The position numbers and the translations under genes are program-made. This document shows positions 159 to 63,881 of a DNA stretch of 64,000 bases, one piece after another. The DNA lies in contig JAHHIK010000014.1 of NCBI GenBank assembly GCA_019358935.1, positions 37,120-101,119 of the forward strand, read 5' to 3'. Source of the DNA: Tolypothrix carrinoi HA7290-LM1. Its GTDB lineage: Bacteria; Cyanobacteriota; Cyanobacteriia; Cyanobacteriales; Nostocaceae. Numbering within the stretch: the first letter of the stretch is position 1; the number at the start of each line of letters is the position of its first letter. Under the pieces are notes generated by a model that ran no database searches, was not told the origin of the DNA, and worked only from the letters and a program-made list of their open reading frames with translations.

Positions 159-214
159 TCAATGGTCAAGAGTCAACAGTCATGCATCGGCTTCAGTAGA
201 CTTTTGACTTTTGA

Positions 215-646
215 CTACTTCTTTTGTTGCGAAAATGAAAGGCTATAGTTATACTGTCGTTGGGATAGCTCACCGACATATATTGAGTAATTCCCTTTTT
301 GCCAGTAACCTGAAATTTCTGGCTTGCCTCCAGAGTAACTATCCGCTAAAACACAGAAGCGCCCTCCAGGACCGTCAATCAGCAGTGTCGGCTTTCCAGC
401 GCTTTCAACTGTTAATCGCAAGTAAGGTAGTGGATCTGTAATCTGGATAACTTGATTAGGTGCAGTGGCAATGTTACCGCAATTGCTTTTTTTTTCTCCC
501 CCTGACTTGCCATTCACAATCAGTGGTTCGGGTTGGGAATTGGGTTTGATTACTACAAGTGGTGCTTCAGCCAAAGTAACATTGGTGAAAACCAAACTCA
601 TCGCCAATACTGCGGGAACAACCGTAAATAGCTTAAGCGTCTTCAT
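215..646 (-). CDS. secreted hypothetical protein (signal peptide, small beta-rich domain)
   Basis: 143-aa ORF with a Sec-type signal ending VTLA and two Cys. Confidence 0.75.
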   Translation of the reverse strand: MKTLKLFTVVPAVLAMSLVFTNVTLAEAPLVVIKPNSQPEPLIVNGKSGGEKKSNCGNIATAPNQVIQITDPLPYLRLTVESAGKPTLLIDGPGGRFCVLADSYSGGKPEISGYWQKGNYSIYVGELSQRQYNYSLSFSQQKK

Positions 647-8916: not shown

Positions 8917-9293
8917 ATTGCACATTTAAACATGAAACTGCAAAGCTTCAATCCTCAGCTTTTGTAAATATTAACCCTGATTAATTAATTTAATAAAAGA
9001 CAACAAAACAATTATAAGTTTTCAAGAGGTATAACCCAAGCTAATTTAACGCCGTGTGCGACTTTTTCTCAAACCTAACCCCCAATCCCCTTCCCTGTAT
9101 AGAGAATGGGGAGAACTCAAAGCCTCTCCCAGTAATAAAAGCTGCTCCTCTTCCCTCCCCTCTTAGGGGAGGGTTAGGGAGGGGTAGGGGAGAGGAATGG
9201 AAGTGAGGTCAAAAGAATAAGTTGCACCGAACCGTAATTTATTACAATTTGAGTCTTAACACCAAGCCTATTGGCTTTTAAGGTGTAACTTTT

Positions 9294-10563
9294 TCACTTT
9301 TTACGGGACATTCCACATATACTGAGCGACCACCAAGCGATGTGCGTAAACTGGGCGCACTCAAACCAGGTAAAAGTAAACACGAGGTAGGTGACTACTA
9401 CTGCCGAAATCCCCCGGTAAGGAGAATTGATAACCTCTACCAGACAGAATCCTATCAGTGCTAAGTAGGGTATTAGTCCTAGAAATCCTACGGATAAAGT
9501 TGTATCTAAAATTAGATTGTGTGCTTTGGTTGTGCGTAGCGGTTCCGTGCGGAGGAGTCCATTCTTGGCTTGAAAGTCAAAAGTGAAGTCACCCAAGCGA
9601 ATTACTTTTACGAGTGATTTGCGATATTGTATCTCTGGGTAAGCTGCACCGAATCCATTAAAGCCCCATCCGAGTAAGGGACGCTTTTGAATGCCGAGGG
9701 ATGATAGTTCCCATAGATGCACGCGGTCAGATGTAATTTGTTTGATTAGAGGTAAGTTATTAAGGTGGCGGGTGGTAGTGCTAATACTGATTATTAACAG
9801 ACACGCTAATGCAGCAGGAAGTATCAACTTATAATGTTTGCGTCCAAGCAGATAAGCAATTGCAACCATACAGGCTAATAATCCTGCCCTGTTTTGAGTT
9901 AGCAGCAGTGCTGGGATAATTAAGACAGCAGCAATTAGTGCGTGGAGTGTGTTTATCCACTTCCACTGCCAACCGACAAGCGTCATAACTGCCACTGCTG
10001 CGAGGACAAATGATGCATGTCCGCGATGGGAATACAAACCGATTGGTTGGTGTCCCTGGAAAATGGTACTGGCGAGGATATTGTCTTGCATCAATTGCCC
10101 ACTTGTGGCAGTATAATCGATACGCCAATTAATCACCTGGGGGAAAATGCTCAGGGCTAGGATGACTCCGCCAATCACGCGCACCGATTAGTTGCGATCG
10201 CGCTAGTTCTGGATAAAGTCTTAGCAGTAGGGCATTGCTGAGGGTGAAGACGGCAATTAGCAGCCAGTAAAGTCAGCCATCACCCATCTGTTCTTGTCCG
10301 AGTAGGGAACGTAAGGGGTAGGGACTAGTGAGGGTTGAGATAAGCCCAATTCCTAAGAATATTTCCCACAGCAGTCTGGTAATTTTCCAACTTTGGGGAA
10401 TTTTTAGGGCGTCTCTTTTTTCCCACAGATAAAGAAAATTGAGTATGCAGATTAGGAGGATGGCGAATACTTTTGGCTGTGTCCAGATTTCCCCGCGCAT
10501 TGTACCAATTGGGTTAATGAGAATGATGCTAAGGGAAAATAGCAGGGTGTAAAGACGGTTCAC
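9294..10563 (-). pseudogene. O-antigen ligase / O-oligosaccharyltransferase family membrane protein, disrupted
   Basis: Wzy_C-like motifs (TQNRAG, RVHLW, PLLGWG, KAHNLILD). In-frame TGA at 10273-10275 (GDG*LYWL), after which the frame stays open, then a frameshift near 10180. Confidence 0.85.
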
Positions 10564-19370: not shown

Positions 19371-20576
19371 TTAACTTAAGCGCAGCCAGCGTTTTCAAAA
19401 AACGAGAGGTAGGTTCGAGCGTACAGGTTTGCTGCTCTTTTTCTCGTCTTTTAATGATGACATCAGCGCGATCGCGCTACTTGCGGATCGCGGTAAGGAA
19501 TAGCAGCACTCATAAATGCAAATGTTCTTTTTCTGCCTGGGAAAGGGTGGAGGAGGGGGGGAGAGGGGGGGATGGGGGAGACAAGGGGGAGGGGGGAGAC
19601 AAGGGAGATGGGGAAGACAAGGAAGACGAGGAGGCAAACTCCCCCGGCCCCCTGCCCCCTGCCCCCTGCCCCCTGCCCCCTGCCCCCTCCTCTTGTATGC
19701 GCTGCAACAGTACCAGGCGATCGCCTTCCCACTGGTGGGGTAGAACCGATTTGTAAATCGGCTGCCAAAAGTGCTGTGCGTACTGCCGCAGCACAGGAAT
19801 AAGTCGCTAATAATCCATCTACGTGTAAACACATAGAGACTTTTTTAATAAATTCAATTGTCCACAATTGCGGACATTGAGGTGGTGAAAAAGGATCGAG
19901 AAAAATTGCACACTAAGCGAAAACCTGAGTGATATACTTGCCCTATCGTGCTTCTAGCATCGCCAATTAGTAGCCTTGCCGCTATATTGTCTCGAAATAC
20001 TTGATGCTCACTCGCCGTCATTAGTCAAAATTTCCGTATATTCGTAACTCCAATTGTCGAATAAGCGCTAAGAGCGATCGCCGCAATTGGCACAGATGCA
20101 TTCAACTCTAAACCGATTACTTCCACATAACAATTGGGATTCACTGCCCAAATTGTCTGCAAAGCAGCTGCGGTGTTGTATCCTAACCCTTGAAGAAAGG
20201 CAGAGGGCAGGAGGCAGAAGGCAGAAGGAGCAATCGGATGGGGATTCAAACCCCAACCGATTGAATCCACCGTGTAGACGGTGGGGTTTTATACCCAGTT
20301 GGCTCCAGCCAGAAGGCTGAATCAAAGACATAATTTATACCTTCTGCCCTCTGCCCTCTGCCTTCTGCCTTCCGCCGAAGGCGGATAACAAACATCTAAC
20401 AAACGCAACACTGGTTTATTAGCTTTCAACGCTAGTTGCGTAGGACTGGCAAACTTGAAAAAACTCTCTTGACGCGCTCCATAATGACTGTGAAAAAACT
20501 TGCCAAACTCTTTGGAAATAAACGTGAAAGAGCCGTCTGCTGTAACTTGTGGTATAAAGTTATCATCATTTGTCAT
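19371..20576 (-). pseudogene. mnmD: MnmD/MnmC-type tRNA methyltransferase, fragmented
   Basis: Pieces in different frames: TADGSFT..FHSHYGA..LDVCY|GLGYN, LLIGDAR, FLDPFSPPQCPQLWT, LATYSCAAAVR, AIPYRDP. Several frameshifts, one repeat tract and one element insertion. Confidence 0.85.
20190..20384 (-). mobile_element. 195-bp non-autonomous IS200/IS605-like miniature element, copy 1
   Basis: Near-identical to 49699-49894. On the minus strand it follows TTAT and ends TTCAA with no TSD; removal rejoins DVCY-GLGYN. Confidence 0.85.
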
Positions 20577-49273: not shown

Positions 49274-52200
49274 TCAATCGATTTTGACACGGAAGCGAAC
49301 GAAGCCGTAATTGTTGTCGGCTGTGTTGTCAAGATTGCCAAAATTAGCGATCGCTGCTCCTTTAAGATTATTTTGATTAGAGCAAACGTTATTCGTTGGT
49401 AATGGTGCTAAGGGCGAGAAAAAGCTAGCATTATCGCTATCTGCCGCATTCGTCCTCGGTGTAACTGTGTTCGCCATATTTACCAAAATGCCACTACCTG
49501 AACCAAAACTGTCAGGAATGAACTTTGTCCCGTTGGGGATAAAGTCACAAAATTTGGCATTTTGCACCGGCTGATTGCCATCAGAAAGGAAATACACGGT
49601 ATATTCTACTTCATCGCCACTTTGCAAACGTATTTGCGGGCTAATGATGGGAACTCCTATCGGCGGTAGTTGTGACCATCCGGCGGCATTGTCATTATCC
49701 GCCTTCGGCGGAAGGCAGAAGGCAGAGGGCAGAGGGCAGAAGGTATAAATTATGTCTTTGATTCAGCCTTCTGGCTGGAGCCAACTGGGTATAAAACCCC
49801 ACCGTCTACACGGTGGATTCAATCGGTTGGGGTTTGAATCCCCATCCGATTGCTCCTTCAGCATAGCTGCCTCCTGCCCTCTGCCTTTCTTCAACATCAT
49901 TTGGGTCATCGATAAAGGTATTAAAGTTGACGTTATTTATTGACGCGCCGTTTCTAATTACATTGGTAATTCGCTTGACTCCACGCAACTGCGGTAATTG
50001 AGGAGGGTTGATAAAGTTGATGATTGTGGGGTCAGGATTTATACCATCGCCGGTGGGTTGGTTGACATTGCCGTTTGCATCTGGGTTGCCGGAATTTACC
50101 CCGGAACCGGGTAGATTGGGGTTAATTGTGTCACTGGCATCAGAAGCGATCGCCTTCCCCCCATCTCCTGTAAAATTAATACTGGCTATGTTGCTAATTC
50201 TCGTTTCAGAATTAGGCAGAATGCGGGCGTTATAAGTAACTGTAACAGTGCTGTTTGGCGGCACAGTGCCGGGATTGGAAAAGATAATTGAATTGCCAGT
50301 ACCGTTAAAACTGTTGTTGGGTAAGGTAGAAGCAGCGTTGAAACCCGAAGAAAATTCAATTGCGTTCGCACTATCTTGTAAAATTTGTAGTTGTGCGGGA
50401 ACGCGATCGCTAATCACGAGATTATCTACAGGATTAGCTGGATTCGGATTGGTAACGATGATCGTATATTGGACATCATCACCACCTGTAACAGTTTTTG
50501 TATTGTCATTGTCTCGCAAAAAGCGCACTGACTTGCGAATTGTCGGAGTTAAAGAAGCTACAGTTACATCTTCACCTGGATTTGCCGCATCATAACTTGT
50601 ACTTGTTGTACCGTTGGCAGTGGTGCGGGTTGGGTTGAGATAAGTTGCTGTCGCAGAGTTTTGATAAACACCATCGGCTACGGTTGCAGAAATGTCAGTT
50701 GTAAAGGTAATTTCTACAGTAGCGCCGCCAGGAATATCGAATGTGCCAAAATTAACAGTAGTTGCGCCAGCAGTTGCATTGTTAATTGCGTTACGAGTTG
50801 CCCCACCAGTTACATTGATAGTGGGAGTGCTTGAGCCATCGAAGGTGAAACCAGCTGGCAAAGTATCGGTAATATTAACGTTAAGCGCTGTACCTCGGTT
50901 GACAGCATTAGAAACGGTGATAGTATAACTTGCTTTACTCGGCTTGTTAAGTGGACCGGGCGTGCTGGTAGTTTTATTAACAGTTAATATCGGCAAGCAT
51001 TCAGCACCGGAATTTGCACCGGGAATACTGCCGGTGGCTGCACTAACTCCACTAGAACCTGTAGTAGAACCGAAGTTTTGCGTAGGGTCAATTGGGTCGC
51101 CAGTACCGCCAGGAGTACCACCGCTAACATTGACAACCGCACCAGAACTGCTAAAAACAACACCACCACCGCCACCACCACCAGGACCGTGCGGTGAAAT
51201 AAATCTGACATCACCGCCTCTACCACCGTTGGCATTTACAGTCAAACCTGTAAGGTTATTATTGGCAGCGGTAACTACCACACTACCACCAGCACCCCCG
51301 CCGCCACCACCATCGTTTTCCACATTGTAAGCATCGTCACCATTAGCAGCGATCCCACCGTTACCACTGACGCTGCCAGTACGAATTAATACCATCCCGC
51401 CGCCAGGAGCGCCGCTGCTAGCAAGACCATTAGGAAGAATACCTCTGATAATCGAGGTACGATTATTACTTGAGCCTGAACCACCACCCCCACCCAAGAC
51501 AACGCGAGCAACATCACCCGGAAAAGCTGTACCGCCAAAACCGCCTATAAAGCGTAGAGAATTCCAAGATTCGCCCCCCAAACCGCCAAAACCGCCGTTA
51601 GCACCACCACCACCACCGGAGTTTTCATTGTTTGTACCGCCGGGATTTCCATCAGTTGCACCACCGCCGGCGGTACCGGGTGCCCCTCTACCGTAGCTGC
51701 CATTTGGGTAGCCTTCATTGATATTATCTAATAGTTGAGGAGTGGCAAGGGAATTTCCAGTTGTGTTGTTAAATGTTTGAATGATAAAGCGGGGTGTACC
51801 TGCAATACCTTCACCTTTGGAACCGTTGGCATTTTGGGTTGAAAGGGTGCGGTAGTCATTGAATGATAATCCAGGTTCGCCGTTAAAAAATCTTCCACCG
51901 CCACCACGGAAACCTTTACCAGTGACATCTACAGTGGCGTTGTTCAAGTTGAGGTTCCCAGCGACATCATACACCAAAACCCCGCCTGTAGAGCCATTCC
52001 ACGGGGCAGCGGTCAAAGTTGAATTTACACTAGCGCTAGAGTATTGCGGGACGCGGATTACTTGATATGTTCTTTGTCCTTGAGTGCCAAAGTCAGCATT
52101 GCTATAAGAATTCCTCAACCCACCACCGGAACCTGTACCTTTAATAGATATGGAATTTCCGGAAACGGAACTTGTAGCAACAACATATTCATAATTCCCA

Positions 52201-52604
52201 GCAGTCGAGTTAGTGTAACCACTCGCTCCGGTTGCTCCCCCGGATGGAGCGACTTTAGTATTTGCACTGTTACCACCCCCCGCAACACCATCACCGTAAG
52301 CATCAGTGTTACTGGAATTAATATCTGCTGCTTGCATTTGGATGACTAACAACAAGTCACCTGGTTGAATTAACGCTCCGTTGGTGGGTGTTCCGACTGG
52401 AATTGACATTGCACCGGGCGATATGGTAGTATTTGCCTGACCTGGGTAATAGGTATTAATTATCCCATTTAAAGGTACTGGACCATCTCTGCCAGGAATA
52501 GCGCATAACTGCGGTGTAACTTGAGCGGATACCGGAAAAGCGGTAAATAAAAGCAGGTTTTGATAACTAAATGTAGTTGTCAGTAAAATTACAGGAATTT
52601 TCAT
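49274..52604 (-). pseudogene. Gly-rich secreted adhesin-like protein with three DUF11 domains, interrupted by a 196-bp element (1044 aa when restored)
   Basis: Deleting 49699-49894 fuses ORFs 49806..52604 and 49274..49627 in frame (..DDPND-DNDNAAGW..; 3135 nt). Confidence 0.88.
49699..49894 (+). mobile_element. 196-bp non-autonomous IS200/IS605-like miniature element, copy 2
   Basis: Follows TTAT (49695-49698), ends TTCAA, no TSD; near-identical to the reverse complement of 20190-20384. Confidence 0.88.
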
Positions 52605-52651
52605 TTCTTCCTTTGCGCCTCTGCGCCTTTGCGTGAGATAAATATAAGGAT

Positions 52652-54808
52652 TTAGCGTGCAGGTTCTATCTGTAAGTCGTTTTCTTGTTCTTCGATGATG
52701 ATTTCTACACCCCTGATATCTTTGAAAATCAATTCCGCACGTCTGTCTCTTGCAGTATCAATACGGCTATTACCTTGAGAACGTCGCTTAGTTTCACCTA
52801 ATGAGCGAATGGTCATTCTTTCTGGCGCGATCGCACTTTTTAAGAGATAATTTCTCACAGATGAAGCGCGTCGCTTACCCAACGCTAAGTTGTATTCATC
52901 ACTTGCACGCGGGTCTGTATGTCCTTCAATTTCCACGATAATGAAAGGATATTCGCGCAATACTTCGACGACGCGATTTAATACCGTTGCACTTTCAGAA
53001 CTAATATTAGATTTGTCTAAAGCAAAGTGAACAATACGCGGTACTTTCAAACGTATCGGTTCTGGTTTTGGTTGTGGTTCTGGTGTCGGTTCCGGAAGCG
53101 GTTCTGGTGTCGGTTCTGGTGCAGCGCTGACACATTGGGGATTTTGGATTTTAGGTCGAGCTATCGTGATCGCTAACGAGCGACTTGGATTTTGGATTGG
53201 TTTTGGAGCATTAACAGAACGGATAATCGCGTTGTAAGCTGGTTCGGAAGTGCCATATTTAGGAACAGTAGCGATCGCGCTAATTTTGTCTCCCGCCTGC
53301 AACTGAGTTAAACTAGCATTAAACTTGCCTTTTTCATCTACACTTACCGTTGCCAAAGACTGACTCAAAGGACCATAATCATTGTCTTGCTCATCAACTC
53401 GGTAAATTTCGACTTGAGAACCAGCGTCAGCAGTACCATTAATTAAAGCCTTGCCATTGACAATAAATAACTCAGAACTAGCAAACTCTGGTGCATTCAC
53501 CGCTCCATTGCCTGTATCTATGCGTCGGTTTGAACTGTTACGCTTAGGGTTAGAACCATCACCACGTTGAAAATCGCTGACATCCAGATTTTGCTGAGTG
53601 TTCAAGTCAATGCTCAAACCTTCTAACTCACCAAATCTGTTATTTTGAATCACGTTACCCAACGCTGAACCAAAACCATAAGCTTTACTCGTGGGAAACG
53701 CAGTCACCACCACCCCAGGTCCAGTTTGATGACTGATTTCATTATCAATAACTTGATGTTCATTGCCCATCAAATACACCGCAGCGCGTCGCAAACGCTT
53801 ACCATTGAAAGCGATGCGGTTATCGCGAATTTGTACTTTCCCTTCAGGTTTGAATAAATAAACACCAGCACCATCGTTACCGCAAATCAAATTACCCTGA
53901 AGTTGTGAATTAGAAATTACCCCTTCTAAACGCACTGCATCAGGCATTCCCGCAAGTCCATTACCGACGATGATGTTTTCTATCATCAAAGTATTTTCCG
54001 CACGTTGCGATGTAATAATGCCACTGCCATCATGGTAATAAATACGGTTGCGTCGAATTGTCGTCCCCGTACTGTTGAAAACGTAAACCCCAAAAGCAGA
54101 TGTTTTTTCTGGCATTTTTTCATCTGGGGTAATACCCAACCAGTTATTTTCCAGCACCACATTTTTCGTGCTGTTGTCAATAAAGATATCCGCTGGTGGT
54201 ATAGTTAAAGTAGCGCCTCGGTTCGACGAACTGAAACCGTAAATACTTAAACCGCGAATTTGGACGTTATCAGCAACGACACTTAAACCGCGAAGTATCT
54301 CTTTGTTGAGTGCAGGAGTTATTGCCACCATCGCTTTAGGAATAGCAATTTGGGCAGTAGCTGAACGAGAAGCGTTGTAACCTGTTTGAGTAGTACCATC
54401 AACTATCACCGGCTTTGTTAAAGCTGGTAATTCCTGCTGTAACTCAATAGTGGTTTCACTTGATGGTAAGCTAAATTCTATACGTGAGTCCGGCGTATTT
54501 TGCCGAACCAAAGCTTTTTCAGCACCGCTTAATTGCTGTATTGGTAAAGTGTTATTTATTAAAGCGATCGCTTCTCTTAAAGTCAACTTATCATCAGCCT
54601 TAACAGCATCTTCCCCACTATTCACCACAACCCGCAAGGAAGAGGAGGGGGGGAGGGGGAGAGGGGGGGATTGACTAGCTGCTATTTCAGGTGAGATAAG
54701 CAAGAAAAAGCACAACGAAGATATAAAAAGTTTTCTCGTAGTAAGCACTAAAGTGCTTATTTGAGCGCTGAAGCGCTCACTACGTCGTATAATTCCACTC
54801 ATATGCAC
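52652..54808 (-). CDS. secreted beta-helix protein with C-terminal OmpA peptidoglycan-binding domain
   Basis: LTLREAI (CSLREA-like) start, parallel beta-helix repeats, PEPTPEP linker, HFALDKS..IEGHTD..YNLALGKRRA. Confidence 0.9.
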   Translation of the reverse strand: MHMSGIIRRSERFSAQISTLVLTTRKLFISSLCFFLLISPEIAASQSPPLPLPPSSSLRVVVNSGEDAVKADDKLTLREAIALINNTLPIQQLSGAEKALVRQNTPDSRIEFSLPSSETTIELQQELPALTKPVIVDGTTQTGYNASRSATAQIAIPKAMVAITPALNKEILRGLSVVADNVQIRGLSIYGFSSSNRGATLTIPPADIFIDNSTKNVVLENNWLGITPDEKMPEKTSAFGVYVFNSTGTTIRRNRIYYHDGSGIITSQRAENTLMIENIIVGNGLAGMPDAVRLEGVISNSQLQGNLICGNDGAGVYLFKPEGKVQIRDNRIAFNGKRLRRAAVYLMGNEHQVIDNEISHQTGPGVVVTAFPTSKAYGFGSALGNVIQNNRFGELEGLSIDLNTQQNLDVSDFQRGDGSNPKRNSSNRRIDTGNGAVNAPEFASSELFIVNGKALINGTADAGSQVEIYRVDEQDNDYGPLSQSLATVSVDEKGKFNASLTQLQAGDKISAIATVPKYGTSEPAYNAIIRSVNAPKPIQNPSRSLAITIARPKIQNPQCVSAAPEPTPEPLPEPTPEPQPKPEPIRLKVPRIVHFALDKSNISSESATVLNRVVEVLREYPFIIVEIEGHTDPRASDEYNLALGKRRASSVRNYLLKSAIAPERMTIRSLGETKRRSQGNSRIDTARDRRAELIFKDIRGVEIIIEEQENDLQIEPAR

Positions 54809-54811
54809 TCC

Positions 54812-57800
54812 TCATTGAGAAAATACTTCTAAAGTTGTATTGACTTTTGGCTTTTCTGTTACAGTTTTAACCTCAGATTCCTGCTGTTGTCTCGGTACTA
54901 CCTTCTGTCGTCCAAAACCACCGAAAAGCTCATTTACCTTAAAGCTGATGTTCAAATAAGGACCACCATTCGAGCGATAACCTGTAAAATCTCGGTCATC
55001 GATACCACCAAAAGCGTAACCTAAACCAATTCGCAAATCTGGTGTGAAATAATACCCGCCTTCTAGCGCTACACCAAATTCGTTGTATCCTTGGTCGGGT
55101 TGACCAATCCAACGCCCTTCCACTGCTAAATCGGTGCGGTATCCTAGTTGATAACTTGCGCGTAACTGCGCTAAATGCAAACTGCTACTGTTAGTAAAGT
55201 TATTCGCTAAGTAACCTGTGCTGTTACGATATGCGTATTTTCCGTAGAATTCCCACTGCCAATTAGGTGCGTAAATAGCTTCGGCAGCGAAGAGGTGATC
55301 TATCGAATTGTTACCGCTACCGTTTAACAAATTGTCGGGAATCGTCGAGGGATTTTGGCGATACTCGTAGCGCAGCAAGGCGTTAAAATTATCGTTATTC
55401 GGATCGCGGTAAGCTAAACCTACTTTCAGATTTGCGGTGTCTCCCAATCCTTCTAAAAGTTGATTTGCACCACCGGCTTGGTGATAGCGGACTAATGCAG
55501 TTACAGCAGGTGTAATTTTACCAGCAACATTTGCGTAAATTACGGAATTGCTGCCGCCGCTACCGTTGCGATACTCAAATTGGGCACCTGCTTGAAAGTT
55601 GGGATTATCAGTGTATTCCAACCCGACGCTGTAAGCATCACCGGAAAACAGTCCTAAAGATGAAGCACTTTGTCCCACAGTATAAGGTTGAGCAAATCTA
55701 GCACCTGCTGCTGTGGGGGTAAATAAATTGTTGAATATATGTTCGTAACCTAAATTAAGTTTTAAACCTGGTGCTAAACGGATGCGATGATTTAACCCTA
55801 CTGCTCCTCGATCGCTCAAGCCCTCAACACCTGATAAAATCGAATAACGTCCGGTGATGTTGGTATTTTCAGATAGTTTGCGGTCAAGAATTGTATCTAA
55901 GCTGGTGATGCTGTTGCCTTTGAGCAAGCCGCCATCATAAAATTGGTGTGCTAGTCGCATGGTTACGCCAGGATACAACGCCCAATCTAAACCGAGAGTG
56001 GTACGGTTAGGATATAAAACGTCGCTATCACCTAGGTTAAGTTCATTTTGAGCGCGGAAAGTTAAAGCGTTGCTTAAAGGAACGTTGAGATGAGATACTA
56101 ATTGACTGGCGTTACCGTCAAACTGGTTGCTGATTTTATCTTCACGGGAACGATTGACATACTCTATACCCAAGTCGGAAGCACCGAGTTTTTGCTGAAT
56201 ACCTGCGCGAATCGTGGTAAGTTTGTTATCAACTCGACTTCCTGGGGTGGGTTGCGGTTGCGGGTTGAATAAGTCAAAAAACTGCGATCGCGTTGCGGGA
56301 GCGATACCAAAGTTATCTTCGCGATCGTATCCGAAATTAAAGCTGGTAGAATCAGTTAGAAGAGCGATCGCTGATGCACCATAACGAGTTTGTCCGGGTG
56401 TAAAACTTGATGTCGCATTATTGGCAAAGTTTTCTGTGAGAGAACGATAGTAAGCTTTTGCTTGAATGCGATCGCTAAAATTCCCAAATGCTTCTAAACG
56501 ATAAGCAGAACCGCTAACATCCCCAAAGGTGAGAGAATTATGGTTAGAGTGAGCATACTCACCAACAATTTGACCGTTTTTACCTAAAGGTGCAAAAAAG
56601 TCAAAGCCGTATAATTGAAACTCTTGCGCTCCTTGATTTTCTCGCAGATAACTACCTGCAATAAATGAATTTGTATTTCCCGCTTCTCCTCTAAAGTTAT
56701 ATTGCAGTCTGCCTGCGTAAAGATTTGTATCTTCACCCCCGTCATTTTGGTAAGTTACAATAATCCGCTTTACAAGAGTACTGCCAAAAGGATTTAATTC
56801 TGTAGCGAACATGGGACGGTGAAAATTCAGCGTTCCCCGGTCATAATCAATATCGTAGTCTGCACCACGCGATAAAGGTTTGCGTTCAACTACTGTACCG
56901 GGACGATTGATTTCTTCTGATTCTAAGAAGACGTTTTCACTACCTGGAATAACCAAGCGACGCGATAAAAAGTATGTTCCACTCAAACCTGTGGGAGTGA
57001 TAGTATCTCGTTGAAAGCCTTCGATATTGTTTGCATACAAAGCTGTTAATTGCAGGTTGCCAAAATTGTAGTTTCCTTTAAACCCGTGCAGTTGTCTGGT
57101 GGTTGCGGTGTAAAGTTGAGAAGTTCTGGCAAATTCAGTTGTATTGTAATCTCCCCACATAAAGTAGTCGGGTTCCGCACCCGGTACGGGGGAAGTGCGT
57201 TCAAAACGAGCATAAACGCTGTCACCAGAAGGTGCGGTAGAAGTAACCGTAGAACTATCACCGTAGACAGGATATTGTTTTTCACAAGATTGAATACTAC
57301 CAAAAAGGCGATTATCATTATTACAATCTTGATTGAGAGAGCGATCGCTATTAAATGCACCTGTAAATAACCAATCTCCAACTTTACCCGTAGCAAACAC
57401 AGCAGCATTCAAATCTACTTCAGTTCCTTGTTTTTTCGGGTTGAGAAAGTCACGGTAACTACCCCAATAATTTGTTCCCCCCGCACCAATCCGCAGATTT
57501 ACAGAACCGGTTGCCAAAGAAGGACGCAAGTAAGTGATGAATTCTACATCTGTATACGCTTCCAGGGGAGAAGAGGAGAGGGGGAGGGGGGGATGGGGGG
57601 ATGGGGGAGACAAGGGAGACAAGGGAGACAAGGGAGAAAATTCACTTCCAAGTCCTCCTTGTCCCCCTTGTCCTCCAAGTCCTCCTTGTCCCCCTTGTCC
57701 CCTTGTTCCCTTGTCTTCTAATGCATCAACTGCGGCGCGAATTTGGACTCTTTGCGCTTCTAAACTTGATTGCAGAGTTGCAGTGAATATACCATTACGC

Positions 57801-58795
57801 GCAAGTACTTGAAACCCGCTTGCGTCTTTGTCTTGATCTGCACCGATAAACTTACCACCACTAGCGGTTAAAGTAACGGTGACATTTTTGGGTATGATTT
57901 CCCCATCTTCATCAATAATTTTACCATTTAACTCGATAGTTGAACGTCCATCAGCCGGAAGAAAGCGATCGCCTGTAGGTGCAATACTGATTTTTGCCTT
58001 TGTTTGTTTAACTGTTATTTTGACGCTAACAGCTTTACCATTTGCAAGTGCAGTTATAGTATTTTCCCCCTCTCTTAGCGGAACGTTATACCAAACCTGA
58101 GTATTTAATTGTTGTGCGGCATCTTTTTCTACCTGCGTAACTATACTTGCGTCAATCAACTTACCATTCACTTTTACCGTCACTTCAGCGCTGGAGTGAT
58201 ATTCAACTACTAAATTAGTAAATTTATCAGTAATAACACTAACTTGCGGGCTAACAATCCTCACTTCATCAGCAGCAATACTTGCATTACTTTTTATTTG
58301 AGCCTCAACTGCATTCACTGAAGGTATATGTATTTCCTCGGATACGTCTTGGGGGAGTGGGGAGTGGGGAGTGGGGAGTAGGGGAGATGAGGGAGATGAG
58401 GGAGAAGGGGGGGAGGGGGAGAGGGGGGGAGTGGGGGAGTGGAGGAGGGGGGGATGGGGGAATGAGGGGAAAGAAGAATTATTCTCCTTGTCTCCCTTGT
58501 CCCCCTTGTCCCCCTTGTCTCCCTTGTCCCCCTTGTCCCCCTTGTCTCCCTTGTCCCCCTTGTCCCCCTGTCTCCCTGTCTCCCTGTCTCCTGACAATTC
58601 ATCAGGTTGAACACTGGGCGAAAAAACCGCAGCGCTATCTTGTTCAACTGGTGCAATTAAGTGAGATAATTTAGAAGGCTTTGCGCTTTCTTGATTTTGA
58701 GGATTTGTATTTGCCGTTGCGCTTGCAGTCGGTAAAATAGGCAGCGCACTACAAATTGTTAATACAGTTAATTTTCTCGAACTTGCCGGCGTCAT
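54812..58795 (-). CDS. large outer-membrane protein (Ig-like domains plus predicted C-terminal beta-barrel)
   Basis: Signal peptide; Ig-like motifs (LREGENTITA, PADGRS); YPVYGDSS, DYDIDYDRG; long amphipathic-strand C-terminus; two in-frame STRR inserts. Confidence 0.8.
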   Translation of the reverse strand: MTPASSRKLTVLTICSALPILPTASATANTNPQNQESAKPSKLSHLIAPVEQDSAAVFSPSVQPDELSGDRETGRQGDKGDKGDKGDKGDKGDKGDKGDKGDKENNSSFPSFPHPPLLHSPTPPLSPSPPSPSSPSSPLLPTPHSPLPQDVSEEIHIPSVNAVEAQIKSNASIAADEVRIVSPQVSVITDKFTNLVVEYHSSAEVTVKVNGKLIDASIVTQVEKDAAQQLNTQVWYNVPLREGENTITALANGKAVSVKITVKQTKAKISIAPTGDRFLPADGRSTIELNGKIIDEDGEIIPKNVTVTLTASGGKFIGADQDKDASGFQVLARNGIFTATLQSSLEAQRVQIRAAVDALEDKGTRGQGGQGGLGGQGGQGGLGSEFSPLSPLSPLSPPSPHPPLPLSSSPLEAYTDVEFITYLRPSLATGSVNLRIGAGGTNYWGSYRDFLNPKKQGTEVDLNAAVFATGKVGDWLFTGAFNSDRSLNQDCNNDNRLFGSIQSCEKQYPVYGDSSTVTSTAPSGDSVYARFERTSPVPGAEPDYFMWGDYNTTEFARTSQLYTATTRQLHGFKGNYNFGNLQLTALYANNIEGFQRDTITPTGLSGTYFLSRRLVIPGSENVFLESEEINRPGTVVERKPLSRGADYDIDYDRGTLNFHRPMFATELNPFGSTLVKRIIVTYQNDGGEDTNLYAGRLQYNFRGEAGNTNSFIAGSYLRENQGAQEFQLYGFDFFAPLGKNGQIVGEYAHSNHNSLTFGDVSGSAYRLEAFGNFSDRIQAKAYYRSLTENFANNATSSFTPGQTRYGASAIALLTDSTSFNFGYDREDNFGIAPATRSQFFDLFNPQPQPTPGSRVDNKLTTIRAGIQQKLGASDLGIEYVNRSREDKISNQFDGNASQLVSHLNVPLSNALTFRAQNELNLGDSDVLYPNRTTLGLDWALYPGVTMRLAHQFYDGGLLKGNSITSLDTILDRKLSENTNITGRYSILSGVEGLSDRGAVGLNHRIRLAPGLKLNLGYEHIFNNLFTPTAAGARFAQPYTVGQSASSLGLFSGDAYSVGLEYTDNPNFQAGAQFEYRNGSGGSNSVIYANVAGKITPAVTALVRYHQAGGANQLLEGLGDTANLKVGLAYRDPNNDNFNALLRYEYRQNPSTIPDNLLNGSGNNSIDHLFAAEAIYAPNWQWEFYGKYAYRNSTGYLANNFTNSSSLHLAQLRASYQLGYRTDLAVEGRWIGQPDQGYNEFGVALEGGYYFTPDLRIGLGYAFGGIDDRDFTGYRSNGGPYLNISFKVNELFGGFGRQKVVPRQQQESEVKTVTEKPKVNTTLEVFSQ
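57566..57715. repeat. STRR insertion, translated in frame
   Basis: Encodes GQGGQGG...SPLSPLSP. Confidence 0.85.
58351..58593. repeat. STRR insertion, translated in frame
   Basis: Encodes (GDK)n...PHSPLP. Confidence 0.85.
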
Positions 58796-58796
58796 C

Positions 58797-59720
58797 TTAT
58801 TGTCGTCCCTCCCTAAAAGCGGGTGTTACCGCAAAGTTCATCCGTGCCATACCCCCAGGTGCAAGTCGGACAAGTCGAGATTGACTATTTTTTTGGATGC
58901 TGCGAAAGTTGGGAGCGATCGCGTAACCTGGTAAACTAGTTAAATCTAAAGTGCCGGTGCGATCGCCTGAAATTACATTCGCTAAAGAAAACAATCCATT
59001 GGCATCGGTGACAATGCGATTACCGTCATCCATGTAAACCACAGCGTTAGGTATTCCCGGTTCTCCGGGTTGTTGTTCACCGTCAAAGTTTTTATCTACA
59101 AACACACGTCCAATCAAAGTTGCACAATCGGAAATTATGCCTGGACGAATTTTCAATAAGTAGCTAGCTGTATTACTTTTAATGTTGCCAGCATTCGCAA
59201 CCGCTAAATTTCTCCCAGTTCCCCGCACTGCATCCGGTGTGACTGTGGCAGCGTAAACTACGTTTAAAGTGCCTTGTGCAGGGATGCTACCGGCATTGAT
59301 GGTGAATGTGCGGTTTTGTGGTGGTGTGGTTGATATTGTGACTGGTGTTGTTGTACCGCTATTTGTTAAAGTTGCTTGCGGCGATCGCGTAATTAATTGC
59401 AGCCCTAATGGTAAAATATCTGTAAGAGTCAGATTATTCGCACTCCCATTGCCAGTGTTGCGGATGGAAACACGGTAAATTACTGTATCTCCAGGTTCAG
59501 CTGCGGCGCGATCGCTACTTTTAATAATCTGCAAAGCTGCAACATCTGTGGTTAGTGATGTGCGATTGGTGTTGACATTTGGGATATTGTCACCCCCAAA
59601 GACTGCTGTATTTACAATTTCATCGGCAGCAGCACACCTTGCTTCCCAAGCAAGCATTCCCGGAAGCAGCAAGAACAGGAGAAGGTGACTATACCTCCAC
59701 CGTTTGATTATCAATCTCAT
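58797..59720 (-). CDS. secreted DUF11 (conserved repeat) plus SdrD-B-like protein
   Basis: LQIIKS..PGDTVIYRVSIRN..LTDILP; IGRVFVDKNFDGEQQPGEPGIP..TDANGLFS. Confidence 0.88.
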   Translation of the reverse strand: MRLIIKRWRYSHLLLFLLLPGMLAWEARCAAADEIVNTAVFGGDNIPNVNTNRTSLTTDVAALQIIKSSDRAAAEPGDTVIYRVSIRNTGNGSANNLTLTDILPLGLQLITRSPQATLTNSGTTTPVTISTTPPQNRTFTINAGSIPAQGTLNVVYAATVTPDAVRGTGRNLAVANAGNIKSNTASYLLKIRPGIISDCATLIGRVFVDKNFDGEQQPGEPGIPNAVVYMDDGNRIVTDANGLFSLANVISGDRTGTLDLTSLPGYAIAPNFRSIQKNSQSRLVRLAPGGMARMNFAVTPAFREGRQ

Positions 59721-60340: not shown

Positions 60341-62308
60341 TTACTTTGAATCTTTGAGAGACTGATGTTTTGAACCATCAGGCATAATCGTACCTTCAAG
60401 GAAAGCAGCACTCAGTTCAGAAATGCTCACTTTAGCACCTTTTAAATTTGCACCAGTTAGGTAGGCACCATCTAAGTTAGCACCATTCAAAGTAGCATTC
60501 CTCAAATTGACACCGCTCATATTCGCATGACTCAAGTCAGCACAAATCAGGTTAGCGCTACTGAGGTTGGCACTACTGAGGTTAGCCTGATTTAAGTGAG
60601 CAAAACTCAGCTTGGCATGACTGAGATTAGCACCAGAAAGTTTAGCACCAGAGAGGTTAGCATTATCGAGGTTAGTGTTGCTCAGATTGGCATTACTGAG
60701 ATCGCTTTCACTTAAATTTGCTGCACTCAGATTGGCTTTGGGGAGATTAATATCTACTAACTCTGCACCCGGAGCATCTAAACCTCTAAGAGAAACATTA
60801 TCCTCATTCAAATCTTGGAGTGCTAGAATTCTGGCATAGCTAACTTTTACACCGTGGGCTGCGTCGATGATACCCCAAGCTTGGTAGTGAAATTGTTTTC
60901 TGCGATCGGGAGCTTCTTTAATTACTAGAACTAAGGCAACTACAAGACTAATAGTATCAGCAGCACCCAGAGCCTTTCCCAGCACAGAATTTTCATCAAT
61001 GCTCACAAAAAATATTGTGAAGATGACGGCTGAAACAGTAGCGACTAACCATGCTGGTGATATCCAGAAAGTATCGATAGCTTTAAGCGGAATTTCTGTG
61101 AGGATTTTAAACCAACGCTGTTCTAATAATTTGGGTTGAAATTCCTGATATTTTTCGGTGATTTTCGCTCTGATTTGTGGGAGGATTTCACCCCACTGCC
61201 CCGCTGATAATTTGGGTTGAAATTCCTGGTATTTTTCGGTGATTTTCGCTCTGATTTGTGGGAGGATTTCACCATTCCACTGAATCGATATTAAAGGCTT
61301 TTTCTGTTGCTCTACTTCGGGCTGAAATGGCTTAGATTCCTTTAATTGTCTTAGCTTTTCTTCGGTTGCTGCTTTTTCATCTGAGATAACTTTTGGTGCG
61401 GACTCTGCACTAGCACCTTTTAACATCAAAGCGGTAATCGCTCTGTAAGCATCTACCCACGCTTGCTTTACTTCGGGTGTCCAATCTTGTTGGAGATACT
61501 GCTCAAAAGACATCAGCAGTGCTTCTCCAACTGGTCCATAATATTTGGCAATTGCTCCATATCCAACGTGTCTTTTTCCCAGAGCGTTGAGAACAGGCTC
61601 TAAAGCCTCGGCATTGCGGAGATTTTCTACTACTAAAACCAGAGCATTAAGCAGCTTTTTCTGTTGCTTTGCCATATCGGTTGTGGCAAACAGCGGTTTC
61701 AGCTCTGGGTGTCCTGTAAACAGGTGTTCGTAAAAACTAGCTGTAAATTCATCAGCGTGGGGTTTAATTTTCTCGAAACTGCTTTCGAGTAACTCTACGG
61801 GTAACTCCTGAGGCTCTTTTTCTAGGACTGATTCTATTTGTGTTTGTGTGGCTGGTGCAGCAGTTACCTGTTTCTCTAATTGAGCTTCTTTTGGTACAGA
61901 TTCTGCACCAGCACCTTTTAACATCAAAGCGGTAATCGCTCTATAGGCATCTGTCCACGCTTGCTTTACTTCGGGTGTCCAATCTTGTTGGAGATACTGC
62001 TCAAAAGACATCAGCAGTGCTTCTCCAACTGGTCCATAATATTTGGCAATTGCTCCATATCCAACGTGTCTTTTTCCCAGAGCGTCGAGAACAGGCTCTA
62101 AAGCCTCCGTATTGCGGAGATTTTCTACTACTAAAACCAGAGCATTAAGCAGCTTTTTCTGTTGCTTTGCCATATCAGTTGTGGCAAACAGCGGTTTCAG
62201 CTCTGGGTGTCCTGTAAACAGGTGTTCGTAAAAACTAGCTGTAAATTCATCAGCGTGGGGTTTAATTTTCTCGAAACTTTGCTCTAAAAGTTCAATATTT
62301 AAAGACAT
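60341..62308 (-). CDS. tandem globin-globin, two-TM, pentapeptide-repeat protein
   Basis: Two near-identical flavohemoglobin-type globin domains (FYEHLF, KPLF, LGKRHVGYG), TM helices and an A(N/K)LS pentapeptide tail. Confidence 0.9.
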   Translation of the reverse strand: MSLNIELLEQSFEKIKPHADEFTASFYEHLFTGHPELKPLFATTDMAKQQKKLLNALVLVVENLRNTEALEPVLDALGKRHVGYGAIAKYYGPVGEALLMSFEQYLQQDWTPEVKQAWTDAYRAITALMLKGAGAESVPKEAQLEKQVTAAPATQTQIESVLEKEPQELPVELLESSFEKIKPHADEFTASFYEHLFTGHPELKPLFATTDMAKQQKKLLNALVLVVENLRNAEALEPVLNALGKRHVGYGAIAKYYGPVGEALLMSFEQYLQQDWTPEVKQAWVDAYRAITALMLKGASAESAPKVISDEKAATEEKLRQLKESKPFQPEVEQQKKPLISIQWNGEILPQIRAKITEKYQEFQPKLSAGQWGEILPQIRAKITEKYQEFQPKLLEQRWFKILTEIPLKAIDTFWISPAWLVATVSAVIFTIFFVSIDENSVLGKALGAADTISLVVALVLVIKEAPDRRKQFHYQAWGIIDAAHGVKVSYARILALQDLNEDNVSLRGLDAPGAELVDINLPKANLSAANLSESDLSNANLSNTNLDNANLSGAKLSGANLSHAKLSFAHLNQANLSSANLSSANLICADLSHANMSGVNLRNATLNGANLDGAYLTGANLKGAKVSISELSAAFLEGTIMPDGSKHQSLKDSK

Positions 62309-62389: not shown

Positions 62390-62818
62390 TTACACAGTTT
62401 CTAGTGCATAATCTTCTCCTGCACCTGTTAACATCAGAGCAGTAATTGCTGTTAAGGCATCGACCCAGGCTTGTTTGACTTCAACAGTCCAATCTTGCTG
62501 GAGATACTGTTCAAAAGTCGTCAACAATGCTTCTCCAACTGCGGGGTAATGTTCGGGAATTGTCCCATATCCAACGTGTTTGGCTCCTAAAGTTTTGAGA
62601 GCTTCCCCTAAAACCTCTGGTTTACGGAGATTTTGTATCACTAAGACCAGAGCAGCTATGAGATGTTTCCGTTGTTCTACCATGTTAGTGTGGGCAAACA
62701 GCGGTTTCACTTCCGGGTGAGTTGCAAACAGGTTTTCGTAGAAGCTAGCTACGAAATCATTAGCGCGAGGTTTGATTTGCTGGAAACTTTGCTCTAAAAG
62801 TTCAACATTTAAAGACAT
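62390..62818 (-). CDS. single-domain globin (flavohemoglobin-like 3/3 fold)
   Basis: FYENLF, KPLF, EQRKHL, LGAKHVGYG, HYPAVGEALL. Confidence 0.93.
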   Translation of the reverse strand: MSLNVELLEQSFQQIKPRANDFVASFYENLFATHPEVKPLFAHTNMVEQRKHLIAALVLVIQNLRKPEVLGEALKTLGAKHVGYGTIPEHYPAVGEALLTTFEQYLQQDWTVEVKQAWVDALTAITALMLTGAGEDYALETV

Positions 62819-63383: not shown

Positions 63384-63881
63384 TTACTTCCAATTCCTAA
63401 TAGGCAATTCAACCTCAGCATTCGACGAAACATCTGCCTGTTGAGCCATACTTACCGCTTTGCTTCGCGCTTCTATAATTTTACCTATCTCACGTCCCAA
63501 GCTTGGTTGACGTGAAATTATCGTATTTACAGAATCTGAGTAAATGACAAGAACTTGCAAATCGTCAACTGCTTTGATTGATACCGGACTCGGTTCCCCA
63601 GTAAACAGTGCCATCTCGCCAAAGAACTCACCACGCAAGATAGTCATTACCTCCAATTCCTTGCCAAACTCGTTGGTGACGGTGACTAGAGCCTGACCCG
63701 CAATGATAATATACAAAGCATTACCAGGCTCGCCCTGCCGGATAACTTTCTCGCCAGCACCGAACTGTTGTAAAATACTTCCCTTAGCTAAGTCATCCAA
63801 ATTTTTCTCCTCTCTAGCTAAAGGCATAAATCCGGGAATTGAGTGCAGGTGGCTTAACTTACTTGAAGCGCTATCTGCCAT
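63384..63881 (-). CDS. cyclic nucleotide-binding domain protein
   Basis: GEKVIRQGE..LYIIIAG..GEFFGEMAL. Confidence 0.85.
   Translation of the reverse strand: MADSASSKLSHLHSIPGFMPLAREEKNLDDLAKGSILQQFGAGEKVIRQGEPGNALYIIIAGQALVTVTNEFGKELEVMTILRGEFFGEMALFTGEPSPVSIKAVDDLQVLVIYSDSVNTIISRQPSLGREIGKIIEARSKAVSMAQQADVSSNAEVELPIRNWK

Follow-up and report, generated by a model that had tools for sequence, protein, structure and literature searches.

SpyTag/SpyCatcher and Jo/In are engineered split isopeptide domains of Gram-positive adhesins, and in type IX secretion the C-terminal domain (CTD) of a cargo protein is a complete immunoglobulin (Ig)-like domain, removed by a sortase-like protease, with the cargo linked to lipopolysaccharide. 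Here we describe a four-gene operon of the cyanobacterium Tolypothrix carrinoi HA7290-LM1 in which an Ig-like isopeptide domain, DUF11, appears to be divided between two exported proteins; it lies in the window, the 64,000-nucleotide stretch of contig JAHHIK010000014.1 that was analysed. DUF11 has been renamed CLIPPER, and the crystal structure 9IFR (domain 708–828) contains a Lys715–Asn806 isopeptide bond with Asp748 as the catalyst. The same source adds that not every DUF11 domain keeps the bond positions and that the two strands linked by the bond in CnaA-like domains, the first and the penultimate, belong to opposing sheets (PMC12617251). According to two further sources, donor-strand insertion followed by a sortase-free intermolecular isopeptide bond, between an N-terminal amine and an Asn, links the archaeal thread Saci_0406 (PMC9715654), and 'exchange and lock' of Clostridium perfringens BsaA likewise combines donor-strand insertion with a sortase-free intermolecular isopeptide bond (bioRxiv 10.1101/2024.11.04.621531).

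Our reading, to which we assign a probability of about 0.6, is that a split CLIPPER (DUF11, CnaA-like) isopeptide domain joins two different exported proteins. The four genes are tightly spaced on the minus strand (window 49274–59720, from the list of open reading frames, ORFs), and each product begins with a Sec-type signal peptide, as judged by eye. In the proposed mechanism, the cargo adhesins would end in a ~172-aa 'catcher' CTD, comprising strands A to F without the penultimate and last strands, with the bond-forming Lys on strand A (VKRIT) and the catalytic Asp on strand C (FCD-x-IP). The product of the first gene, termed the root, would expose the missing strands after signal-peptide cleavage, including the bond-forming Asn (I-x-N37-T-A). 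After Sec export, this N-terminal segment would insert into the CTD and complete the sandwich, strand G lying beside the Asp strand in one sheet and strand G' beside the Lys strand in the other, and Lys5 and Asn37 would then probably become joined by an isopeptide bond, made autocatalytically and releasing NH3 as intact CLIPPER domains do. We further guess that export or retention of the complex is probably the task of the giant outer-membrane barrel, a role that the peptidoglycan-binding beta-helix protein of one operon type, type A, may share. We regard strand complementation between root and cargo as likely, and the covalent Lys5–Asn37 bond as plausible, with the odds leaning slightly towards it. 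The parts of the operon are as follows.

58797–59720, minus strand: gene 1, the 307-aa DUF11 protein or root (ORF; Pfam DUF11 1e-10; TIGR01451 56.7 bits; SdrD_B), with signal peptide 1–32, donor 33–62, complete DUF11/CLIPPER domain 63–190 (K67, D101, N171) and SdrD_B-like C-terminal part 195–307.
59535–59624, minus strand: donor segment, root residues 33–62 (DEIVNTAVFGGDNIPNVNTNRTSLTTDVAA), with the Asn37 codon at 59610–59612 and the Asn52 codon at 59565–59567.
54812–58795, minus strand: gene 2, the 1327-aa outer-membrane barrel protein (ORF; weak Pfam matches).
52652–54808, minus strand: gene 3, the 718-aa exported beta-helix/OmpA protein (Pfam OmpA 2.7e-17, Beta_helix 5.9e-12, NosD).
49893–52604, minus strand: gene 4, 5' part, the adhesin including CTD strand A (TIGR04226 64.6 bits; LRGVKRIT from 49988; Lys codon 49974–49976).
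49697–49892, no strand assigned: 196-bp repeat element, resembling a miniature inverted-repeat transposable element, inside the CTD (from comparison with the intact orthologue at locus L017).
49274–49696, minus strand: gene 4, 3' part, CTD strands B to F (TIGR01451 38.7 bits; FCDFIP Asp codon 49544–49546; ends FVRFRVKID*).

This arrangement shares with CLIPPER both family and catalytic residues. The CTD matches TIGR01451, the root's own domain matches 9IFR at 4.5e-6, and Lys on the first strand, Asp in D-x-[LI]-P and Asn on the penultimate strand are common to both. Unlike in CLIPPER, the Asn and the last strands are here on another protein, so that any bond would be intermolecular, and the CTD carries an invariant Cys beside the Asp and, following strand A, a stretch of ~45 inserted residues. 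In chaperone-usher pili (Fim/Pap), too, an exported protein's N-terminal extension fills in the missing C-terminal strand of an Ig-like domain on another protein, and their operons likewise include a large outer-membrane barrel. In contrast to these pili, two strands are donated here, to a CnaA-like fold with an isopeptide triad, and no subunit is both donor and acceptor, which gives a root-plus-cargo pair and not a polymer. A Pfam scan of the four operon proteins found neither Usher (PF00577) nor the PapD-like chaperone (PF00345), and the one PapD-like chain that the root profile picked up, 4NCD, came in at no better than E 0.083.

With SpyTag/SpyCatcher and Jo/In the operon has in common a split Ig-like isopeptide domain, enzyme-free reassembly (here predicted) and a short terminal tag, and 5MKC (Jo.In) is among the CTD fold matches. 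Unlike those pairs it is natural, has the CLIPPER fold, would form a Lys–Asn bond, belongs to a two-membrane bacterium and uses a two-strand tag. Threads and BsaA differ, as described in their sources, in being homopolymeric fibres of other folds (thread; TasA-like) with different bond chemistry, and for neither do the sources describe a hetero-pair or an outer-membrane barrel encoded in the operon. Type IX cargo is similar in that a conserved Ig-like domain occupies the extreme C-terminus of diverse proteins, there for sorting and covalent attachment to the surface, whereas the CTD here is incomplete and no type IX components were seen in the operon. No description of a natural split DUF11/CLIPPER domain was found in the literature covered, which took in few subscription journals. 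The combination of a CLIPPER fold, a donor-only root with an acceptor-only cargo, two donated strands, a dedicated barrel and a two-membrane host differs from all of the systems compared.

The acceptor domain stops at the same point in every strong match, and the pattern of a split domain with conserved residues on both parts exceeds chance by a wide margin. Counted from LRGVKRIT, the CTD is ~172 aa long and ends ...GFVRFRVKID* after strand F, without a G strand, and 208 of 208 strong profile matches finish at most 3 residues from the protein end. The same ending closes all homologous frames of 11 loci, all 21 cargo proteins of 20 operons and the best 120 of 626 database proteins (97 by regular expression, 23 as variants such as FTRFRV). 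The CTD profile also has 119 internal matches, all weak: the highest, of 62.8 bits, is to a fragment ORF, and the others, at 32.4 bits or less, are to ordinary DUF11 domains, whose strand F leads on to ...x-N-x-A. As judged from its sequence relatives, the CTD subtype exists only as a C-terminal domain ending before the Asn strand. CLIPPER domains carry Lys, Asp and Asn within one chain, whereas the CTD carries only Lys and Asp; because the chain stops after strand F in all 208 cases, we take the CTD to be a split form and not an intramolecular isopeptide domain.

Within the CTD, Lys5, Arg6, Cys82 and Asp83 are kept in all of the best 120 of the 626 database relatives, and these four together with Tyr64 and Tyr67 are invariant in 76 of 76 aligned sequences from the CTD loci. 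The 3' fragment scores 38.7 bits against TIGR01451 (NCBIfam cut-off 24); the Pfam DUF11 model itself did not report it, and the CTD profile had no match at E ≤ 1 among PDB chain sequences. The passengers ahead of the CTD are diverse (DUF11, SdrD-B-like, carboxypeptidase-regulatory-like, DUF6923 and lectin-like). In the window, the 5' part of the adhesin consists of a signal peptide, a Gly-rich region and two complete DUF11 domains, followed by the start of the CTD. Those two domains pass TIGR04226, the isopeptide-forming D2 domain model (64.6 bits against a cut-off of 30), and the complete domains of adhesin and root together match PF01345, TIGR01451 and TIGR04226. The root has DUF11 and TIGR01451 matches and an SdrD_B match below the cut-off (Pfam, NCBIfam). 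All three complete domains carry K...D-x-[LIV]-P...N-x-A, as the preliminary description of the locus had recognized, and its positions for the Lys codon (GVKRIT), the FVRFRVKID* ending and the Asn37 codon were verified. Its observation that the last domain of the adhesin lacks the Asn strand extends to the 208 strong matches, and that on the Lys and Asp to the 120 relatives. Two further features of the CTD were seen. The insertion after strand A contains a conserved acidic stretch, D-D-P-x-D-x-N/D-D-N (residues 26–35 of the first sequence), resembling a metal-binding loop, and the invariant Cys82 beside the catalytic Asp could pair in a disulfide with a second, near-invariant Cys (N-x-C).

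The strands that the CTD lacks are found at the mature N-terminus of the root, which reads DEIVN37TAVFGGDNIPNVNTN52RTSL... and matches strands G and G' of a CLIPPER domain, the penultimate and the last. By alignment, GRN171LAVANAGNIKSN183TAS at the end of the root's complete domain is equivalent to IVN37TAVFGGDNIPNVNTN52RTS. The likeness of this orphan segment to the missing part, pointed out earlier for the single locus, holds across the family: all 88 aligned root proteins keep Asn37 and Asn52, as well as K67, D101 and N171 of the root's own domain. The x-N-x-A motif is present in 116 of the 120 root homologues listed by regular expression and in 119 by eye. Three of the four regular-expression misses keep the Asn (P0125, with the motif outside the expression's window; P0180, N-I-A; P0226, N-T-G), and the fourth, P0126, is an N-terminally truncated gene call. 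In every listed homologue the donor begins 4–5 residues past the point where cleavage of the signal peptide is predicted, and its Asn lies 22 residues before the segment end, like Asn806 in 9IFR.

A hidden Markov model (HMM) of the donor reached 21 bits or more solely at 29 root N-termini. The next matches, at 4 bits or less, are internal DUF11 G strands, and no site above 4 bits was present in the 208 CTD proteins. A homopolymeric fibre was rejected for this operon type, as no protein is both donor and acceptor and all 29 donor matches of at least 21 bits are in roots with complete domains. Four root homologues, P0122, P0123, P0124 and P0133, carry the donor motif twice in tandem (e.g. ...EIVNTAVFGGENIPNVNTNEIINTAVFGGENIP...), which would let one root hold two cargo molecules.

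Donor and acceptor genes occur together well beyond this genome. In a set of 41 genomes, that of the window plus 40 relatives, 25 have the CTD and 27 the root, and the two genes lie 7–11 kb apart on one strand in nearly every case. Twenty fetched operons fall into two types. Type A has the order root (~307 aa), barrel, beta-helix/OmpA, cargo and two tag flavours, DEIVNTAVFGGDN and GVIRNTAGAGADN; type B has a root of ~510 aa starting I-x-NQATYTYTD, the barrel, an optional third gene and a cargo ending ...RFR-x-KVK. Each flavour is represented by one operon in the window's own genome (contigs C14, C30 and C100), which therefore holds three distinct tag/CTD pairs. The co-conservation anticipated for homologous operons was also seen in 74 further cyanobacterial loci: of the 40 in which 6.5 kb or more of sequence precedes the first CTD gene, 36 have the barrel and 33 the root there on the same strand. 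Three are barrel-only, two of them cut at the locus edge, and four have neither gene. Thirteen of the further loci carry 2–3 cargo genes.

Orphan cargo genes of 786–800 aa, with a CTD variant starting LRFVKRIS, were also noted (L111 9917–12277, minus strand; G010:C6; G008:C286; G007:C170; G002:C271). L111 is surrounded by housekeeping genes, and neither a root nor a barrel gene lies within ~8–10 kb of it on either side. Tandem donors, multiple cargo genes per operon and orphan cargo genes fit a modular tag. At another locus, L067 (a Cyanomargarita metagenome-assembled genome), a 201-aa root-like ORF with an intact donor (8610–9215) lies directly upstream of CTD fragments (9869–10538), with neither barrel nor full cargo between them; this arrangement may be a deletion remnant.

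In the window itself, and beyond what the preliminary description spelled out, the adhesin gene is not merely split but contains a 196-bp repeat element inside the CTD. Compared with the intact orthologue at L017, a 1043-aa protein with a CTD 89% identical to that of the window, the element (~49697–49892) sits between ...DDPNDV and NDNA... and adds a +1 frameshift and an in-frame TAG. The gene now reads as two ORFs, 49806–52604 and 49274–49627, with the stop of FVRFRVKID* at 49274–49276. The break lies between strands A and B, away from the CTD end. The insertion looks recent, because the remaining gene has no further stops or defects relative to the orthologue, and this operon's own adhesin copy is probably non-functional. 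At least 42 copies with 97–100% identity are present in the window's own genome, which suggests a recent burst, and neither a tRNA scan nor an Rfam scan of the element gave a match. The repeat, ~200 bp long, has G/C-rich, purine/pyrimidine-skewed ends (GGCAGAGGGCAGGAGGCAG ... CTGCCCTCTGCCCTCTGCC), and another copy lies at about window 20190–20388 (G000:C14:57309–57507).

Since the window's own pair is broken, the intact orthologous pair from L017 was used for modeling; the CTD entered with an alignment of 76 rows, and root residues 31–68 with one of 83 rows. The complex gave an ipSAE of 0.73 (runs 0.75, 0.71 and 0.73), against 0.01 for the best control. The runs share 100% of their contacts, and the partner has a predicted local distance difference test (pLDDT) value of at least 72. 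Donor residues 33–46 run antiparallel to CTD residues 76–84, the C strand with Cys82–Asp83, and donor residues 48–59 lie on CTD residues 1–7, the A strand bearing the Lys. Among the contacts, Lys5 meets Ala39 and Thr54, Asp83 meets residues 39 and 40, and core residue 66 meets residue 39. As modelled, the complex shows the CnaA topology, with first and penultimate strands on opposing sheets.

Modelled alone with AlphaFold2, the CTD (pLDDT 94.0, predicted template modeling score 0.89) has strands A, B, C, C', D, D', one extra, E and F, and is still without the two strands. The root model has a pLDDT of 82.9, with domains at ~90 and residues 31–60 poorly defined (54–60). Its intact DUF11 domain has the core strand order of the CTD plus G (170–177) and G' (185–188).

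On the side of a split, bond-forming domain, the top VIA-align neighbours of the CTD model are CnaA-like isopeptide domains of Gram-positive pilins and adhesins (CppA, Z 7.7; BcpA, 7.4; RrgB, 6.5; Cnm, 6.5), and CLIPPER 9IFR follows with Z 5.8 and a root-mean-square deviation of 2.2 over 84 residues, its residue numbering in that table being uncertain. Several points weigh against this reading. All CTD fold matches are below Z 8, a range possibly reflecting only a common arrangement. Foldseek of the CTD model against the PDB returned nothing at E ≤ 0.001. The fold assignment therefore rests on the sequence family and on consistent template ranges, which run from 4 residues before the bond Lys to 9–11 before the bond Asn (2X9Z, 189..307 with Lys193 and Asn318; 7LGR, 173..282 with Lys177 and Asn291; numbering from PMC12617251 Table 1). 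The confident lone model leaves room for the CTD to be a stable stand-alone domain. A profile–profile scan of the donor against the root ranked the G/G' window best at a low score (13.9, probability 9.6%, runner-up 12.7).

The complex model is subject to similar caution. Of 157 solved complexes, 116 attain the ipSAE mark, as do 2 of 215 mismatched pairs, counts that hold only roughly for a complex built on custom alignments. Its pass may also stem from the model's memory of intact DUF11/CnaA domains, because the modelled parts are halves of a known fold, and the score shows likeness, not binding. The earlier proposal that the root completes the adhesin CTD and links to it covalently stands in part: strand insertion appeared in the controlled model, the listed contacts pair Lys5 with Ala39 and not with Asn37, and the geometry of the triad stays putative. 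Covariation was considered as proof of contact. CTD position Lys−2 is Gly/Ala when donor position +4 is Phe/Leu (16/16) and otherwise Leu/Ile (31/31 unique pairs), but this use was rejected, since the partition is a clade signal and the top mutual-information pairs are at background level (for 13 donor by 172 CTD columns, the predicted interface takes in 7 of the top 30, the background being 0.23). With its CTD interrupted by a mobile element, the window's own pair probably cannot work here. We infer the covalent bond purely from the invariant triad and from CLIPPER homology, the root as an 'adaptor' or anchor tied to the barrel or the cell is a guess, and binding in the cell, the assembly site and an anchoring role are likewise putative.

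In a rival explanation that we consider unlikely, strand donation from root to CTD is non-covalent, a chaperone-usher-like contact with no chemical lock in which Lys, Asp and Asn serve packing or hydrogen bonds. The evidence for strand insertion fits such pairing equally well, the bond itself being what we infer beyond it, and isopeptide bonds are absent from some DUF11 domains (PMC12617251). The lack of a Lys5–Asn37 pair among the listed contacts points in the same direction. Against this, the full triad is invariant across two proteins (Lys and Asp 120/120, Asn 88/88), the root's own intact domain keeps the invariant K67, D101 and N171, and the donor Asn occupies the place homologous to Asn806 in 9IFR, 22 residues before the end. 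Invariance of the catalytic set despite its division over two proteins is our main argument for favouring a real bond.

We think it rather improbable that the CTD is instead a self-sufficient sorting or secretion signal (compare the type IX CTD), recognized by the barrel or another factor, with the root segment a flexible leader or relic that pairs with nothing. The position of the CTD at the extreme C-terminus of very different passengers, also on orphan genes, is in keeping with such a signal, as are the confident AlphaFold2 fold of the CTD alone and the status of the barrel as the most conserved operon member. A sorting signal leaves unexplained why the CTD always ends exactly before the Asn strand, why the missing strands, with an invariant Asn, are at the mature N-terminus of a co-operonic protein, and why insertion is modelled for the pair and not for controls. 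Sorting and docking roles of the CTD are compatible and not mutually exclusive.

Gene decay or mis-annotation in this genome, with a chance likeness of the root N-terminus, has next to no chance of being right and is already refuted by family-wide conservation: the window's adhesin gene is truly broken by the 196-bp element, but intact orthologues and hundreds of relatives share the ending ...RFRV-x-x-x*, 119 of 120 homologues keep the donor motif, and the break falls between strands A and B, not at the CTD end. A gene-fission artefact was also rejected, as the architecture is family-wide and the order of the donor gene is wrong; simple fission cannot give this order, because the donor gene is upstream, two genes away.

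The two remaining operon proteins bear on how a root–cargo complex might be exported or held. The 1327-aa protein combines a barrel region of ~870 aa with a signal peptide, GDK/Pro-rich repeats and weak Big_1-like Ig domains. Pfam gives only weak Ig-like and DUF2490 matches and no Usher family, and no named family for the barrel was found in Pfam, the Atlas or source names. Its Atlas neighbours are unnamed outer-membrane proteins of ~850 aa. Of 1641 relatives found, 120 were listed, and nearly all named ones among these are called 'hypothetical protein'; most of the listed relatives are 65–76% identical. The N-terminal part of the barrel protein (window 58300–58660) contains collagen-like GDK(GDK)n and Pro/Ser-rich low-complexity repeats, whose length varies among orthologues (1327 against 1280 aa), and the long antisense ORFs there are by-products of the repeats. 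The 718-aa protein comprises a right-handed beta-helix, an Ig-like domain, a Pro-rich linker and an OmpA-like peptidoglycan-binding domain, with Pal/OmpA-type NCBIfam matches below their cut-offs, and its gene belongs to type-A operons, whereas those of type B may lack it.

The operon's neighbours are unrelated (SurE, RibF, a MoxR ATPase, globins and a globin-pentapeptide fusion). The fusion, a 655-aa protein at window 60341–62308 on the minus strand, combines two globin stretches with a long pentapeptide-repeat region and is unusual; it adjoins a separate 142-aa globin gene (62390–62818, minus strand) and a cyclic nucleotide monophosphate-binding protein (63384–63881).

For filamentous cyanobacteria, our tentative picture, a little short of an even chance, is of a natural, enzyme-free Tag/Catcher display in which any exported CTD cargo would be clicked covalently, Lys to Asn, onto a root tag working with the barrel, with several possibly orthogonal pairs per genome and some tandem-tag roots for multivalent display. 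If the split-domain reading is true, it would mean sortase-free covalent attachment of large adhesins in outer-membrane bacteria, and a domain described until now only with an intramolecular cross-link would become an intermolecular coupling device. It would also give a function to a widespread hypothetical/DUF11 operon, with 2091 root-like, 1641 barrel-like and 626 CTD-bearing proteins, and would provide natural, possibly orthogonal protein-ligation pairs for biotechnology.

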